In this document: positions 9,781 to 63,894 of the stretch, one piece after another | Position numbering within the stretch: position 1 is the stretch's first letter | How the letters are laid out: each line of letters begins with the position of its first letter | Assembly: GCA_964460615.1 (NCBI GenBank) | Contig: CAYWPX010000001.1 | Span: 49,826-113,825 of the forward strand | Reading direction: 5' to 3' | From: an uncultured Planctomycetia bacterium | GTDB lineage: Bacteria; Omnitrophota; Gorgyraeia; CAYWPX01 | DNA: 64,000 nucleotides | The notes under the pieces: generated by a model | Database searches by the model: none | Seen by the model: the letters and a program-made list of their open reading frames with translations, nothing else | Told to the model about the DNA's origin: nothing | Program-made: the position numbers and the translations under genes

Positions 9781-9794
9781 TCTGAATGTTTTGC

Positions 9795-9823
9795 TTGACG
9801 GTATAGCTTTGTTTTGTTATTAT
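9795..9823 (+). promoter_or_regulatory. sigma70-like promoter (TTGACG, 17 nt spacer, TATTAT) upstream of the MarR-like gene
   Basis: Hexamers and spacing were read directly from the sequence. An AAGGA RBS lies 7 nt before the ATG at 9843. Confidence 0.45.
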
Positions 9824-9824
9824 A

Positions 9825-9841
9825 TGTTCAAAGGATGAACA
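9825..9841. promoter_or_regulatory. inverted repeat TGTTCA-aagga-TGAACA overlapping the RBS of the MarR-like gene (candidate autoregulatory operator)
   Basis: Perfect 6-bp arms with a 5-bp spacer, ending 1 nt before the start codon. Confidence 0.4.
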
Positions 9842-9842
9842 G

Positions 9843-10202
9843 ATGAACAATAAGACACATGATATTCTGGATTCCGAAAAGACTCTTCATATACTTAAGG
9901 AGATCGAACAGAATCCCCAGGTGACCCAAAGGTATCTTTCCGAGAAATTTGTCATAAGTCTCGGCAAGGTGAATTACCTCATTAATTCCCTCATAGGAAA
10001 AGGCCTTATTAAAGTTAAAAACTTCAAAAACTCCAAAAATAAGCTTGCCTACATGTATATTTTTACACCCGAAGGACTGAAGGCAAAAATCGAAATCACT
10101 AAAAAATTCTTAGAGTGGAAGACCATTGAATACGGAAGAATAAAAAAAGATATAGAAAACTACAAAAAAGAGATCACTGCTTATTCGTCAAAGCCCGAAT
10201 AA
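9843..10202 (+). CDS. MarR/winged-helix transcriptional regulator of the EPS/nonulosonate-associated type
   Basis: 119 aa. Helix-turn-helix region QRYLSEKFVISLGKVNYLINSLIGKGLI. This small regulator class typically heads nonulosonic-acid and EPS loci. Confidence 0.55.
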   Translation: MNNKTHDILDSEKTLHILKEIEQNPQVTQRYLSEKFVISLGKVNYLINSLIGKGLIKVKNFKNSKNKLAYMYIFTPEGLKAKIEITKKFLEWKTIEYGRIKKDIENYKKEITAYSSKPE

Positions 10203-46739: not shown

Positions 46740-46744
46740 TGAAT

Positions 46745-46814
46745 TAATCTGGACTAAGACCAATCAAAAGATAGGGGATTAATCTGGACTAGGACCATTC
46801 AAAAGATAGGGGAT
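46745..46814. repeat. 35-bp tandem direct repeat, 2 copies with 2 mismatches, each copy ending in an AGGGGAT Shine-Dalgarno-like element
   Basis: taatctggactaagaccaatcaaaagataggggat followed by taatctggactaggaccattcaaaagataggggat, read directly. It ends 5 nt before the ATG at 46820. Confidence 0.75.
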
Positions 46815-46819
46815 TAAAC

Positions 46820-58768: not shown

Positions 58769-60637
58769 ATGCTAAAAAATCAGGATATTATCTGTATTTC
58801 GAGTATTGATTGGGATTTTATTTGGCAACAGCATCAAGAGATCATGTCAACCTTTGCTAAAAACGGCAATAGAGTGCTTTTCATTGAAAACACGGGTGTT
58901 AGGCCGCCGGTTATTTCCGATACCTCGAGAATATTCAAAAGGATTTCTAATTGGAGAAAAAGCGTTAAGGGTTTCCGCCAGGAGATGGAAAATCTTTATA
59001 TTTTTTCGCCAATTGTATTGCCGTTTCCTTATTCTAGATTGGCCAGGGTCATTAATAAATTCCTTCTCACAAGGTCGATTGAACGGTGGAGCAGGGTGAT
59101 GGGATTTCAAAATCCCATAATCTGGACTTTTCTTCCGACCCCTTTAGTGCTGGATATCATTGATAAGATCCCGCACAGGGCGCTTATTTATTATTGTACC
59201 GATAATTTTTCCGCCACTTCCAAAGCTGCAAAAAAAATAGTTAAGTATGAACAAAAGGTTTTTAAAAAAGCCGATGCGGTGTTTGTGATGGCAAGAAATA
59301 TGGTTAATTATTGCAAAGAGTTCAATAAGAATGTTACCTGCGTTCCTATGGGAGTAAGCCCCGCAATTTTTGAAAAATCGGCAGCAACTCTTCCTAAGCC
59401 CCCGGAACTTCAGAATGCTAAATCCAAGGTAATAGGTTTTATCGGAGGCCTGAGGCAATCCATCGATCAGGAAATGGTTGCTTACTTAACCGAGACCTTT
59501 TGTGATTACACTTTTATTTTTGTCGGGCCTATACAGACGGATATATCGGGTTTTAAGGATATCAAAAATGTCATCATAGCCGGTAAAAAAAGACATGACG
59601 AACTCGGTGCATATTTGAGATATTTTGATGTGGCCATTATCCCCTATAAAAAAGACGATTACACAGATAATATCTCTGCTGCTAAGCTAAATGAGTATCT
59701 TGTGTTGGGGAAACCGGTCGTTACCACCAACCTGAAAGAGACAGAGCTTTTTAATAAGGAGAACGGCGATATCCTTTATATTGCGAAGAATAAGGAAGAA
59801 TTTGCGGAAAATATCAAAAAGGCTCTGAAGGAGGATTGCGAAGCCCTAAGAAAGAAAAGGATAGAGGTTGCTTATTCGAACAGCTGGGACCGCAAGATCC
59901 AGCAGATGTCGGCAATCGTCGAAGATCTTATAAAAGCCGCCGGAGAAAAGAAGGTTAACTGGCAGGTTGCGCTTCTTTCCGTGTACAGGAATTTTAGGAG
60001 AAAAGTTATTTATATTATGGCATCGCTGATACTTTTGTGGCTGGCGGTTTTTTATACTCCGTTAATGTGGATTATTGCCAAACCCTTATTGATCTTTGAT
60101 AAGCCGGCTACATCTGAAGCGATAGTAGTGTTTGCCGGAGGCGCCGGGGAGTCTGGTGAGGCAGGCCAGGGGTATGAAGAGAGGGTGACATACGCAGTTG
60201 ACCTGTATAAAGAAGGGTATGCGAAAAATTTAATATTTTCTTCAGGTTATACCTATGTATTCAAAGAACCCGAGATGATGAAGGTACTGGCAGTGTCATT
60301 GGGGGTGCCCGAGAGCTCAATATATCTGGATGATAAAGCCAGAAATACTTATGAAAACGTTGTTAATACTAAATCGATCCTTACAAAGAAACATTGGGAC
60401 AAGATCATACTAGTAAGTTCTCCTTATCATATGAGGAGAGTTGAGCTGGTTTTTAAAAAAAATGCAGATGAGGTGGAAGTTACTTATTTACCCATAAAGG
60501 ACAGCCTCTTTTACAGCCATCCGATAAAAGATTCAAAAGGGAGGAGCTCTCTTAAGCAGATCAACCTGAGCCAGATCAAGGGCATACTGCACGAATATCT
60601 TGGTATAGTGTATTACTGGTTCAAAGGGTATATCTAA
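58769..60637 (+). CDS. fusion protein: N-terminal GT-B glycosyltransferase (TuaH-like) + TM helix + C-terminal DUF218 (SanA/ElyC/YdcF-like) domain
   Basis: IICISSIDWDFIWQQHQEIM is the TuaH-type N-terminus. The C-terminal half carries DLYKEGYAKNLIFSSG...ILVSSPYHMRRV, which is DUF218-like. 622 aa. Confidence 0.55.
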   Translation: MLKNQDIICISSIDWDFIWQQHQEIMSTFAKNGNRVLFIENTGVRPPVISDTSRIFKRISNWRKSVKGFRQEMENLYIFSPIVLPFPYSRLARVINKFLLTRSIERWSRVMGFQNPIIWTFLPTPLVLDIIDKIPHRALIYYCTDNFSATSKAAKKIVKYEQKVFKKADAVFVMARNMVNYCKEFNKNVTCVPMGVSPAIFEKSAATLPKPPELQNAKSKVIGFIGGLRQSIDQEMVAYLTETFCDYTFIFVGPIQTDISGFKDIKNVIIAGKKRHDELGAYLRYFDVAIIPYKKDDYTDNISAAKLNEYLVLGKPVVTTNLKETELFNKENGDILYIAKNKEEFAENIKKALKEDCEALRKKRIEVAYSNSWDRKIQQMSAIVEDLIKAAGEKKVNWQVALLSVYRNFRRKVIYIMASLILLWLAVFYTPLMWIIAKPLLIFDKPATSEAIVVFAGGAGESGEAGQGYEERVTYAVDLYKEGYAKNLIFSSGYTYVFKEPEMMKVLAVSLGVPESSIYLDDKARNTYENVVNTKSILTKKHWDKIILVSSPYHMRRVELVFKKNADEVEVTYLPIKDSLFYSHPIKDSKGRSSLKQINLSQIKGILHEYLGIVYYWFKGYI

Positions 60638-60682
60638 AACTCCGATTCTATAAAATTCTGATAGCTTTTCTCCCGGTTATTA

Positions 60683-60690
60683 TGTATAAT
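60683..60690 (+). promoter_or_regulatory. extended -10 element TGTATAAT in the 138-bp gap upstream of the 60776 operon
   Basis: Perfect TGnTATAAT. The -35 is weak. An AAGGAG RBS lies at 60762-60767, 8 nt before the ATG at 60776. Confidence 0.4.
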
Positions 60691-60714
60691 ATCATAATTA
60701 AATAATAAGTATAA

Positions 60715-60724
60715 GGGGGGGGGG
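60715..60724. repeat. G10 homopolymeric tract in the leader/promoter-proximal region
   Basis: Ten consecutive G read directly from the sequence, in a window that is otherwise about 35 % GC. It lies 25 nt downstream of the candidate -10 and 52 nt upstream of the start codon. Confidence 0.9.
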
Positions 60725-60775
60725 CTTATTTACCTAAGCCACCTAAGGTATTATTATCTCTAAGGAGATTGATCG

Positions 60776-61303
60776 ATGAAGATAATAGATAATAAGGGCA
60801 GGATTTTTGGAAAAATCAATATCATTGATTTTTTGTTTATTTTATTTGTTATTGGTATGGTTTTCGTGCTTTTTTTGGGTTACAAAATACTTTCTTCCAT
60901 GGCGCCTCGTGATATTTATGCCTCGATGGAGATACGGCTAAAGGCTTCAAATGTCGATCCGTCAGTTACTCAGGTTATGAAAATGAATGATGTAGAGACA
61001 AGTGTAGGCGGTAGGGTAGTGGGAAGGATCGTGGAGATCCAGAGCACAAAAGACTCGGAGATAATAAATATCTCCAATAACAAGATCGAAATAATCAAAA
61101 ATCCCTTTAAGAATGATATAGTGCTTTTAATTGATGCTAAATGCAAAAGAACACCCGATGGTTTGGTGTATAAAAATAGTCCCGCTAAGATAGGTGCTTC
61201 TATTGTATTTTCTACGGATCTGTATACTTTGACCGGTTTAATTGTTGACATGAAACCATTAGGTACTCCGGCCCCTAAGGATCGCATTAAAGAGTTTGAA
61301 TAA
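60776..61303 (+). CDS. hypothetical protein with N-terminal TM helix
   Basis: ORF with a strong RBS. MKIIDNKGRIFGKINIIDFLFILFVIGMVFVLFLGY. No motif recognised. Confidence 0.3.
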   Translation: MKIIDNKGRIFGKINIIDFLFILFVIGMVFVLFLGYKILSSMAPRDIYASMEIRLKASNVDPSVTQVMKMNDVETSVGGRVVGRIVEIQSTKDSEIINISNNKIEIIKNPFKNDIVLLIDAKCKRTPDGLVYKNSPAKIGASIVFSTDLYTLTGLIVDMKPLGTPAPKDRIKEFE

Positions 61304-61305
61304 TA

Positions 61306-61860
61306 ATGAATAAGGTATATGCGAATAGCGTAATTTATGCCGGTTTTTTAAAGTTCAAAAGCTCATATAGGCGCTTTGAGCGTGTTGTAGAATTTCGTTT
61401 TCGTAGTTATAATGTTCTCAAGAAGAAGGTTTTAGACAGGGTTTTTGATGGAGATCTGGTAAGTTCAAGCGCTTTTGTAAAATACTATAATTTTTATAAA
61501 AACGCCAGAAATGATTATTTTAGCACTAGCAGGGTATTGAGTTTTTTTGCTGAGGCGTCGCTTGCTGGAAGGAATGCGGTTACTCTTGATATAAGAGGAA
61601 GCAGGTTCCTTAATTTTATTGAGAAGTTTGCGTATTTTAAACTGGAAAAGAATTTTCTGGTAGTATGTTTGATAGCTCTCTTTATCAATATTTTATTAAG
61701 CGTTTTATTTTATGGCGGTATAAGCTCTATAGGTTTTATCACTAGGTCATATATATTGATCTTTTTAGGGATCTTGATGCTAAACAGATCAAGTCTTAGA
61801 AATTTGCTGAATAGCAGTTTTTTGGTCTCCAAATTAAAAAGTCTGATGGATAAAAAATAA
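61306..61860 (+). CDS. hypothetical protein (C-terminal hydrophobic segment)
   Basis: ORF closely following the previous gene. No motif recognised. Confidence 0.25.
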   Translation: MNKVYANSVIYAGFLKFKSSYRRFERVVEFRFRSYNVLKKKVLDRVFDGDLVSSSAFVKYYNFYKNARNDYFSTSRVLSFFAEASLAGRNAVTLDIRGSRFLNFIEKFAYFKLEKNFLVVCLIALFINILLSVLFYGGISSIGFITRSYILIFLGILMLNRSSLRNLLNSSFLVSKLKSLMDKK

Positions 61861-61872
61861 AAAGGTGGGCAT

Positions 61873-62841
61873 ATGAAGGCACTGATTACCGGCGGTGCGG
61901 GGTTTATCGGTTCGCATCTTGCGGAGGAACTTCTGGAGAATGGAAAGAGCGTTATTGCTATTGATAATCTTTCTACCGGAAGCATGGATAATATCAAACA
62001 TCTGAAATCCAATCCGAAATTTGAATTTGTCCTGGATACGATCATGGACCGCAATATAATGAAAAAACTTATTTCTAAAGTGGATGTGGTTTATCATCTT
62101 GCTGCGGCGGTCGGCGTAAAATATATTATAGACAATCCTTTGCTCTCTTTAGAGACCAACATAAAAGGGACTGAGATCATTTTGGAACTTTCGAATGAGC
62201 TTGGGAAGAAGAAGGTGATCCTGGCCTCAACATCAGAGATCTACGGTAAAGACCGGTCCGGGAAAAGCTCTTTTAAGGAAAATGATGACAGGTTATTAGG
62301 CCCAACTACCATATCCAGATGGAGTTATTCGTGCGCAAAGGCTGTGGACGAGTTCTTGGCATTGGCATACTTCAGAGAAAAAAAATTACCTATAGTTATT
62401 GTAAGGTTTTTTAACATCTGCGGTCCCCGTCAATCCGGCAGATACGGAATGGTTATGCCTCGTTTTATAAAACAGTCTCTTATGAATCAGCCGATCACGA
62501 TCTTTGGCGGCGGTGATCAGACCAGGAGCTTTACTTATGTAAAAGATGCCGTAGATGGCCTTGTAAAGTTAGCTACCAACCCGAAGGCAGTCGGCGAGGT
62601 CTTTAATATAGGTAACCCAAGATCTATTTCTATTAAAGAGCTTGCTGAGAAGATAAAAAAGTTCACTAATTCAAGATCGGAGCTTTCGTTCATCCCATAT
62701 GAGAAAGCTTACGAGAAGGGCTTTGAGGATATGAAACACAGGACCCCTGATATCACTAAAATAAAGAAATTAATAGACTTCAATCCCAAGGTTGATATTG
62801 ACGAAATGATAAAGCTTATTATAGATGATTTTAAAAAATAG
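61873..62841 (+). CDS. NAD-dependent nucleotide-sugar epimerase/dehydratase (GalE/WbpP-like)
   Basis: [13 protein letters not shown] and YSCAKAVDE (YxxxK). 322 aa. Confidence 0.75.
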   Translation: MKALITGGAGFIGSHLAEELLENGKSVIAIDNLSTGSMDNIKHLKSNPKFEFVLDTIMDRNIMKKLISKVDVVYHLAAAVGVKYIIDNPLLSLETNIKGTEIILELSNELGKKKVILASTSEIYGKDRSGKSSFKENDDRLLGPTTISRWSYSCAKAVDEFLALAYFREKKLPIVIVRFFNICGPRQSGRYGMVMPRFIKQSLMNQPITIFGGGDQTRSFTYVKDAVDGLVKLATNPKAVGEVFNIGNPRSISIKELAEKIKKFTNSRSELSFIPYEKAYEKGFEDMKHRTPDITKIKKLIDFNPKVDIDEMIKLIIDDFKK

Positions 62842-62853
62842 GATAAGATTTCT

Positions 62854-63894
62854 ATGAAAGACCCGCAGTTTTATTCTTCTATGGATCTCGTTGCATCCTT
62901 CTCGATCTCAGTCATAGTCAGTTTATTAGTAACTCCTTTTGTGAAGATTCTTGCCAAAAAGCTTAATTATCTTGATCATCCCGAGGCAAAGAAGATCCAT
63001 GTGAAAGCGACTCCGCTTTTGGGTGGGGTATCTATATTCATAGCGTTCATAGTTGCGGTCATATTTACGCTTCCTCTGGAAAAAGAGATCCTGGCAATAA
63101 TAATAGGAGGATTATTTCTTATATTGATAGGACTTGTGGATGATAGGTTTGGAATGATGCCCACAACTAAACTGTTCGGCCAGCTTATAGCAGCGCTTAC
63201 TGTTGTAAAATTCGGAGGAGTGAGGGCGGAGTTCATCGGAAATTATTATATAAGCGTAATTTTTACCTGTTTTTGGATAATCGGCATAACTAATGCTATT
63301 AACCTTCTTGATAACATGAATGGGCTTTCATCAGGTCTTGTGGCGATAGCATCCGTATTTTTTGCTTTTATTGCTTTCCAGGACAATAATATTATGGCAG
63401 CTTCTTTGGCTTTGGCGCTTTGCGGAGGGTGCATAGGTTTTTTAAGATATAATTTTCCGAATGCGACGATCTTCATGGGAGATACCGGAAGCCTTTTTAT
63501 AGGGTTTTGTATCTCTACGCTCGCAGTTTTGGTCGGTTGGCATACGCCTGAATTTAATATAAGTTCGATCATTGTGCCTATTATGATTTTAGGGTACCCT
63601 ATTTTTGATACAACTTTTGTTACGATATTGAGGATAAGAGAAGGAAGGTCGGTTTTTCAGGGCGGTAAGGACCATTCTTCCCATAGGCTCTCTGTAATGG
63701 GATTAAAAAGAAAGAATGCCGTTATAATAATTTTTATGATTGCTTTTTTTATCGGTATGGCAACTTTGTTTATTAAAGAGTTATCAATGGGGCTTAATCT
63801 GATATTTGCTGCTATTATTCTGATATCAATGATAATTTTTGGAATAATTTTAAGCAGGGTAAATGTAAGATACGCAAAAGATGCCAGAAAATGA
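62854..63894 (+). CDS. polyprenyl-phosphate N-acetylhexosamine-1-phosphate transferase (WecA/MraY/TagO family), initiating transferase
   Basis: GLVDDRFGMMPTTKLFGQ, NAINLLDNMNGLSSG, FMGDTGSLFIGF. 346 aa, about 10 TM segments. Confidence 0.8.
   Translation: MKDPQFYSSMDLVASFSISVIVSLLVTPFVKILAKKLNYLDHPEAKKIHVKATPLLGGVSIFIAFIVAVIFTLPLEKEILAIIIGGLFLILIGLVDDRFGMMPTTKLFGQLIAALTVVKFGGVRAEFIGNYYISVIFTCFWIIGITNAINLLDNMNGLSSGLVAIASVFFAFIAFQDNNIMAASLALALCGGCIGFLRYNFPNATIFMGDTGSLFIGFCISTLAVLVGWHTPEFNISSIIVPIMILGYPIFDTTFVTILRIREGRSVFQGGKDHSSHRLSVMGLKRKNAVIIIFMIAFFIGMATLFIKELSMGLNLIFAAIILISMIIFGIILSRVNVRYAKDARK

Follow-up and report, generated by a model that had tools for sequence, protein, structure and literature searches.

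A G10 homopolymer in a lineage-specific spacer upstream of Omnitrophota glycan genes, a candidate graded modulator of expression

A run of ten guanines directly upstream of surface-glycan genes raises the question of whether changes in its length alter how those genes are expressed and, if they do, at which level. The original prediction placed the run in the leader of a terminal operon, between a promoter and a start codon, and expected slippage to modulate expression without shifting a reading frame. Here, we consider the run within the whole 64,000-nt stretch of DNA in which it lies (the window), against 80 homologous loci and against other assemblies of the same locus.

The tract and the glycan island around it

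The ten-G run is present exactly where it had been claimed, at 60715-60724, and is the sole G or C run longer than 6 nt in the 64,000 bases of the window (GC content 38.9%). A first-order Markov model gives an expectation of ~0.10 G runs of at least 10 nt for the window, and G runs of at least 6 nt are depleted, with 6 observed against 17 expected. PhasomeIt treats a G or C run of at least 7 as hypermutable and takes this as enough for a candidate (PMC6321876); G10 is well above that cut-off, in agreement with the claim of a hypermutable length. The homopolymer is genuine and almost certainly mutable. It lies 77 nt past the stop codon of the upstream gene and 51 nt before the ATG at 60776, upstream of the ribosome-binding site of that ATG as had been proposed (Table 1). 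We take this ATG to be the true start, since the N-terminal motif MKIID.KG..FGKINIIDF is invariant or nearly so in an alignment of 20 DUF4330 homologues and a TGA stands in frame just upstream. With the start confirmed, the in-frame TGA just before it, the tract 77 nt after the upstream stop and no ORF spanning it, a frameshift switch was rejected, and the expectation that length changes in this non-coding tract would leave the reading frame intact was borne out. A G-quadruplex was rejected by reasoning alone, as four separated G-tracts are not obtainable from a single G10 run.

Table 1. Positions of the features at and around the G10 tract, in window coordinates
Feature	Position	Strand	Remarks
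GT1 + DUF218 fusion gene, 622 aa	58769..60637	+	Upstream gene; Pfam PF13692, PF02698
Non-coding spacer of 138 nt between the GT1+DUF218 and DUF4330 genes	60638..60775	+	Lineage-specific; one of four window gaps >50 nt
Predicted 64-nt RNA hairpin	60663..60726	+	Outer C/U:G stem and inner AU stem (UUAUUAU/AUAAUAA); encloses TATAAT
AG plus 10-nt pyrimidine tract (AGCUUUUCUCCC)	60663..60674	+	C/U part 60665-60674; 40 nt upstream of the tract
TATAAT hexamer (claimed -10)	60685..60690	+	TG directly abutting at 60683-60684
G10 homopolymer	60715..60724	+	Read directly; flanks ATAAG / CTTAT
Predicted alternative small hairpin, GGGGGCUUA / UAAGCCaCC	60720..60743	+	Inverted repeat I11; competes for the 3′ end of the G-run
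Shine-Dalgarno (SD) AAGGAG	60762..60767	+	Read directly; 8 nt before the ATG at 60776
DUF4330 gene, 175 aa	60776..61303	+	First gene downstream of the tract; Pfam PF14221, E = 9e-21
184-aa ORF	61306..61860	+	No Pfam match; protein cluster consists of itself alone
NAD-dependent sugar epimerase/dehydratase	61873..62841	+	Pfam PF01370, PF16363; syntenic, 51-68% identity
Glycosyltransferase family 4 (GT4; WecA/MraY-type initiating phosphotransferase)	62854..63894	+	Pfam PF00953; syntenic

The genes directly downstream of the tract are, from their Pfam assignments, surface-glycan genes as the original prediction held: DUF4330, an orphan 184-aa ORF, an epimerase and a GT4/WecA-like transferase. The confident AF2 model of the DUF4330 protein (pLDDT 84) consists of a beta-rich domain preceded by a membrane helix (residues 16-41). 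A Foldseek comparison of this model with the PDB gave no significant match (best E = 0.29), the best resemblance being a weak one to the beta-barrel domains of translation GTPases. A search of 5.8 billion proteins with the DUF4330 protein yielded no relative in the range from 39% to 100% identity; the named matches are Omnitrophota MAGs, and our literature search found no paper naming DUF4330. A Nitrospinia MAG (JAJDAS010000373.1; L041, 1591-2835) encodes a 414-aa protein with poly-proline linkers between three DUF4330-like repeats, one of the linkers being partly encoded by a C9 run (2106-2114), a coding homopolymer that is potentially slippage-prone. The 184-aa ORF has no homologue in the 80 related loci, where the equivalent position is occupied by unrelated sequence of variable length.

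What had been called the terminal operon is simply the point at which the window ends, as all called genes of the 64 kb lie on the plus strand and are tightly packed. The whole window is a unidirectional glycan-biosynthesis island of ~60 such genes, in which every credible ORF is on the plus strand, the non-coding share is ~1.3% and only four gaps exceed 50 nt. Nearly all ORFs that we sampled belong to glycan biosynthesis, including RmlB/RmlD-like proteins, a DegT aminotransferase, NeuB, a B12-radical SAM enzyme, GT2 and PMT_2 proteins, an AsnB-like enzyme, a flippase and a methyltransferase. The island, for all its glycan genes, contains no other G or C run of at least 7 nt, and the one run of at least 8 nt in the 80 homologous loci (~591 kb) is the coding, poly-proline C9 of the Nitrospinia locus. 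Because the island holds a lone tract and the relatives a single coding run, we see no sign of homopolymer switching as a strategy of the lineage; this single-tract pattern is unlike that of organisms relying on contingency loci.

Two other places in the island were recorded in passing. Near 9795 lies a canonical promoter-like site, TTGACG-17-TGtTATTAT, the one convincing promoter of the window. Downstream of it is a small winged-helix/MarR-like ORF of 119 aa (9843-10202), which the 120-aa ORF list had missed and which is directly followed by NeuB; the region 9790-10202 is probably a regulator with an internal promoter of the glycan island. At 46740-46819, an 80-nt gap before a GT2 gene (ATG 46820) consists of two tandem ~35-nt units, TTAATCTGGACTA[A/G]GACCA[A/T]TCAAAAGATAGGGGATTAA. 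At the end of each unit stands an SD-like AGGGGA, which means that the ribosome-binding region before this gene is duplicated.

Whether the length of the tract varies was assessed from other assemblies of the locus, two of which were located by exact-protein look-ups. A Logan contig of 7,420 bp (SRR12487046; L001/L003), possibly from the same data as the window, is 100% identical to it and has G10. An ENA contig of 891 bp at coverage 1.7 (ERZ4216102; L002) is identical to the window except that it has G9. Two length states are observed, and G9 versus G10 is the sole difference between the window and the ENA assembly over 891 nt. That the lone difference falls in the tract is what slippage predicts; the difference is consistent with slippage, and a homopolymer sequencing error is possible at a coverage of 1.7. 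Four further genes of the locus, used in exact-protein look-ups, led back to this Logan contig alone; JGI metagenome contigs, scanned twice for the tract flanks, gave 0 further copies, and the source genome is absent from the GTDB representative genomes.

The spacer and its predicted RNA structure

The gene order GT1+DUF218, DUF4330, variable gene, epimerase and GT4 is kept in ~20 Omnitrophota-type loci (L004-L028, L039, L050 and L068; e.g., L004, 2120-7918), in which the GT1+DUF218 orthologues, at 45-55% identity, stand immediately upstream of DUF4330. These two genes are separated by at most 35 nt, essentially just the SD, in 17 of 20 relatives; the remaining three gaps are 66, 89 and 110 nt, and the 138 nt in the window are the longest seen. 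This block, conserved across Omnitrophota, is the more solid by-product of our analysis. A gap this short in 17 of the 20 marks the junction as one that normally falls within an operon, and because the flanking genes normally stand 9-35 nt apart, the tract more probably belongs to a polycistronic mRNA than to the leader of an operon of its own. With the promoter evidence given below added, we would rate a position in read-through polycistronic RNA as at least as likely as one in a dedicated leader; the tract would be transcribed in read-through RNA as well as in RNA begun at the claimed -10.

The origin of the spacer was approached through its relatives and its repeats. It is present once in the window and in none of the 80 fetched loci, and a mobile or repeated element was rejected on that ground. 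None of the 80 homologous loci (~591 kb) has a G or C run of at least 7 nt at this junction; hairpin-bearing spacers do occur at the same junction in other lineages, where they have been placed independently (e.g., L025). The short repeats D1, D3 and D6 had hinted at a duplication of the 5′ end of DUF4330 or of the 3′ end of the upstream gene, and this too was rejected, as local alignment (p = 0.2 and 0.13) was no better than for random segments. The 10-mer CTTATTTACC directly after the G-run (60725-60734) recurs at 60482-60491 in the 3′ end of the upstream gene, a recurrence that is insignificant relative to random window segments (p ~0.13).

Within the spacer, the G-run has a potential pairing partner. 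The segment AGCUUUUCUCCC can pair with GGGGGGGGGGCU (60715-60726) over 12 contiguous positions, 6 of them Watson-Crick and 6 G-U. Only 12 sites on the plus strand of the window are able to pair in this way with GGGGGGGGGGCU, and the probability of finding one within 100 nt by chance is ~0.03-0.04. Both the MFE and the centroid structures use this pairing, which provides the outer stem of the predicted 64-nt hairpin. The corresponding 68-nt segment has a dG of -18.7 kcal/mol (z = -2.7; 4 of 200 shuffles as stable) and falls in the lowest 3% of the 68-nt windows of the whole stretch, which is suggestive of a moderately unusual stability and not compelling. Longer flanking contexts gave non-significant z-scores, and because no relative carries the spacer, the hairpin is without covariation support. 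In the folding model, the alternative small hairpin dominates if transcription begins after 60690 or if the tract has at most 7 G, and in the short-leader version the 5′ half of the G-run is left unpaired (~0.5).

We modelled folding for tract lengths from G5 to G14 in both the short-leader and the read-through RNA. In the short leader, the predicted accessibility of the SD stays at 0.58-0.62 whatever the length of the tract. In the read-through RNA, formation of the C/U:G helix requires at least 8 G and reaches saturation at exactly G10, at which length the tract is predicted to be 99% paired, and the accessibility of the AUG goes from ~0.35 at G7 and below to ~0.6 at G9 and above; the fold of this RNA changes only at about G7 or below. 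From G9 to G11, neither SD nor AUG accessibility changed in the models. Because these three lengths are nearly indistinguishable, the models predict no switch from a single slippage step near the length seen here.

Other RNA elements were sought in the same region. A terminator scan found no intrinsic terminator in 60638-60775, and a terminator or attenuator was rejected from the structure itself, which has a 40-nt structured loop, G-U pairs at 6 of the 12 positions of the outer stem and, after it, UAUUUAC (4 U in 7). A known RNA family was likewise rejected: Rfam 15 gave no match at the gathering threshold in the window, and for 60560-60860 at E <=10 the best score was 19 bits against a threshold of 56.

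Our preferred reading, held tentatively and with somewhat less than even confidence, is that the G10 tract acts on the RNA as a graded modulator, by supplying one arm of a hairpin between two cistrons of a conserved glycan operon. The lineage-specific spacer would interrupt an operon block that is otherwise tightly coupled and conserved in Omnitrophota, and the tract would most likely be transcribed within the polycistronic mRNA. There, the G-run would form the 3′ arm of the 64-nt hairpin by pairing with the C/U tract 40 nt upstream, if the hairpin forms in the cell, and this structure would compete with the smaller hairpin just downstream. Replication slippage would alter the length of the hairpin arm and may thereby adjust, in a graded manner, how abundant the DUF4330-to-WecA cistrons are, or how well they are translated, in comparison with the genes upstream. 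Since the tract would be a hairpin arm within a polycistronic mRNA, any regulatory effect should be graded and not ON/OFF. The confirmed and statistically exceptional tract, a G9/G10 difference that is the only one in 891 nt, a junction that is normally intra-operonic, the rare complementary C/U tract nearby, the stability of the hairpin, the saturation of its outer helix at exactly G10 and the hairpin-bearing spacers of other lineages make such a modulator plausible, and the Helicobacter pylori tlpB-hp0102 leader, in which a variable non-coding G-repeat paired with a C/U-rich RNA exerts graded control over a glycan gene, offers a precedent (PMC8295292). The modulator is unproven, with half of the outer stem made of G-U pairs, no covariation support, non-significant z-scores in longer contexts, an SD accessibility that does not respond to length, no second tract in the glycan island and a G9 that comes from a contig of coverage 1.7. 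Non-coding DNA is, moreover, exactly where a neutral tract would be tolerated.

Competing explanations

A neutral mutational hotspot is almost as likely as a graded modulator. The spacer would then be non-functional inserted DNA in which a short G-run was expanded by slippage, and the tract would stay near 9-10 G through mutational dynamics and drift neutrally in length, with no consequence for expression. The restriction of the spacer to this lineage, with 17 of 20 relatives lacking it at the junction, fits such an account, as does the absence of a tract from this position in all the homologous loci. A species using phase variation would be expected to have several tracts in its glycan genes, and this island has one; near G10, tract length had no modelled effect on the SD or the AUG; and no promoter geometry is convincing. 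With a non-coding share of ~1.3%, the gaps would be the only place in the window where an unselected G10 escapes purging. Against neutrality stand the depletion of G runs elsewhere in the window, the exact 12-nt complementarity to the nearby C/U tract, which chance would rarely supply, and the location immediately upstream of a conserved envelope-glycan block, which resembles known contingency loci.

Control at the DNA level close to a promoter, the model of the original prediction, appears unlikely. Transcription would start either from the TATAAT at 60685-60690, with the tract at about +18 to +27 of the leader, or from TTTACC-17-TATTAT at 60729-60757, with the tract just upstream of the -35, and changes in length would act on the output of the promoter or on the phasing of a UP element, in the manner of the Treponema tpr promoters. 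The element TGTATAAT, which had been described as a perfect extended -10, does occur at 60683-60690 with the tract starting 25 nt downstream, so that both coordinates are correct, and it does hold a perfect TATAAT, but it is not a canonical extended -10 because no spacer base separates the TG from the hexamer as in TGnTATAAT, and it has no -35: the best hexamer at 17 nt is TAGCTT, which is unacceptable. TATAAT occurs 67 times on the plus strand of the window, the three TGnTATAAT sites all lie elsewhere, and our consensus promoter scan does not list the hexamer at 60685-60690. The scan does list TTTACC-17-TATTAT, a 9/12 match starting 4 nt after the tract, but promoter-like matches occur in the window at a chance rate (19 found against 17.8 expected) and this candidate would initiate transcription inside the SD. 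The tract falls outside the -35/-10 spacer of both candidates, and the convincing site near 9795, which shows the form that a canonical promoter takes in this organism, looks different from either.

The dimensions of the spacer do favor an internal promoter in that, within the 64 kb, only the 138-nt gap and three others leave room for one, and poly-G tracts in Treponema pallidum promoters are known to modulate transcription (PMC7864442). Conversely, the two flanking genes are tightly coupled in the relatives. Of the proposed leader between promoter and start codon, what stands is that the tract is non-coding and upstream of the start; the promoter is weak and the junction is one that is normally intra-operonic. 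A dedicated promoter and leader are uncertain because the evidence for the promoter is weak and because of the synteny in relatives.

The tract could also be the target of a C/U-rich small RNA acting in trans, with tract length setting the strength or the outcome of pairing, which we regard as very improbable. The precedent is the H. pylori tlpB-hp0102 leader, where RepG binds the G-repeat (7-16 G) through its C/U-rich loop and thereby gives graded control of an LPS glycosyltransferase (PMC8295292). The H. pylori repeat is variable, and the one described here has been seen at two lengths; as there, it is non-coding and upstream of an operon with a surface-glycan glycosyltransferase, it has a C/U-rich partner, its lengths overlap with those in H. 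pylori (9-10 G here) and a graded outcome is expected; the 5′ half of the G-run, predicted to be about half unpaired in a short leader, would be available for pairing. In H. pylori, however, it is the terminator loop of an sRNA acting in trans that pairs with a repeat located in a mapped 5′ UTR, whereas the only partner found here belongs to the same spacer, 40 nt upstream of the tract in cis. No candidate sRNA gene was found in the window, which has almost no intergenic space, there is no Rfam match, and the cis C/U tract at 60665-60674 already explains the complementarity.

That the tract is a sequencing or assembly artefact, arising from poly-G dark cycles or a chimeric join, is the least credible account and was rejected: two-colour Illumina chemistry is known to produce poly-G artefacts and the contig of one assembly starts only 33 nt upstream of the tract, but the tract is interior to the 7.4-kb Logan contig, which matches the window throughout, it recurs in the separate ENA assembly, its flanks run continuously into the neighbouring genes in both, and ten bases between unique matching flanks are unlike read-end poly-G.

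Relation to known systems and significance

The graded modulator that we favor can be compared with three kinds of known elements besides the H. pylori leader, which is its closest mechanistic analogue. Intercistronic stem-loops, such as REP-type or stabiliser hairpins, set differential expression within operons. The spacer resembles them in having a predicted stable hairpin in a gap between co-oriented cistrons, with a hairpin also at the L025 junction, and differs from them in that half of its outer stem is G-U, that the element is not repeated elsewhere and that covariation is lacking. With the T. pallidum tpr, tp0126 and tprL tracts it shares a poly-G run of at least 8, a non-coding location upstream of envelope genes and an expected modulation in place of a frameshift; the T. 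pallidum tracts lie in promoters and modulate transcription of envelope genes, and their length varies between and within strains (PMC7864442), which the G9/G10 states may parallel. Those tracts are, however, within experimentally mapped promoters and their variation was established by fragment analysis (PMC7864442 and references therein), whereas the tract described here is outside the -35/-10 spacer of its weak candidate promoters. With the contingency loci of Campylobacter, Neisseria, Haemophilus and Helicobacter it has in common a length of at least 7 and an association with glycan biosynthesis genes (PMC6321876). The genomes of those four genera have many tracts, about three quarters of them inside ORFs (PMC6321876), in contrast to the single intergenic tract and the ~60 tract-free glycan genes here, and the host is an environmental, uncultivated Omnitrophota-like lineage. 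In terms of what defines a homopolymeric contingency locus, the tract has the length, and the 64-kb island and the 80 loci (~591 kb) lack the repertoire of tracts. A classical contingency locus is disfavored because there is no other tract, no relative with a tract and no fit to promoter geometry.

We speculate, as a long shot, that the spacer works as an RNA rheostat, complete in itself and tunable by length, in which a hypermutable G-repeat would find its C/U partner in cis, as a cis counterpart of the RepG/tlpB interaction, and slippage would shift the balance between the two hairpins. An equally long shot is the further reading that this balance would set the ratio of the upstream glycan-modifying enzymes to the downstream DUF4330/WecA-type initiation module.

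Our literature search found no paper on Omnitrophota and phase variation, nor one that names the run accession. What has been found is one homopolymer, together with a length variant from a single low-coverage contig, and a regulatory role for it is plausible but unproven. If the tract is functional, it would be a non-coding homopolymeric tract modulating glycan genes, a type of element known elsewhere and so far undescribed in this phylum. If its length tunes the DUF4330-to-WecA block, contingency control of surface glycans by simple sequences would occur in an environmental candidate phylum as well as in host-adapted pathogens, and the locus would represent a cis-pairing variant of the one known leader G-repeat that acts at the RNA level. 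The rheostat, if true, would be the first locus of contingency type described for Omnitrophota, whose members are uncultivated and often ultra-small.
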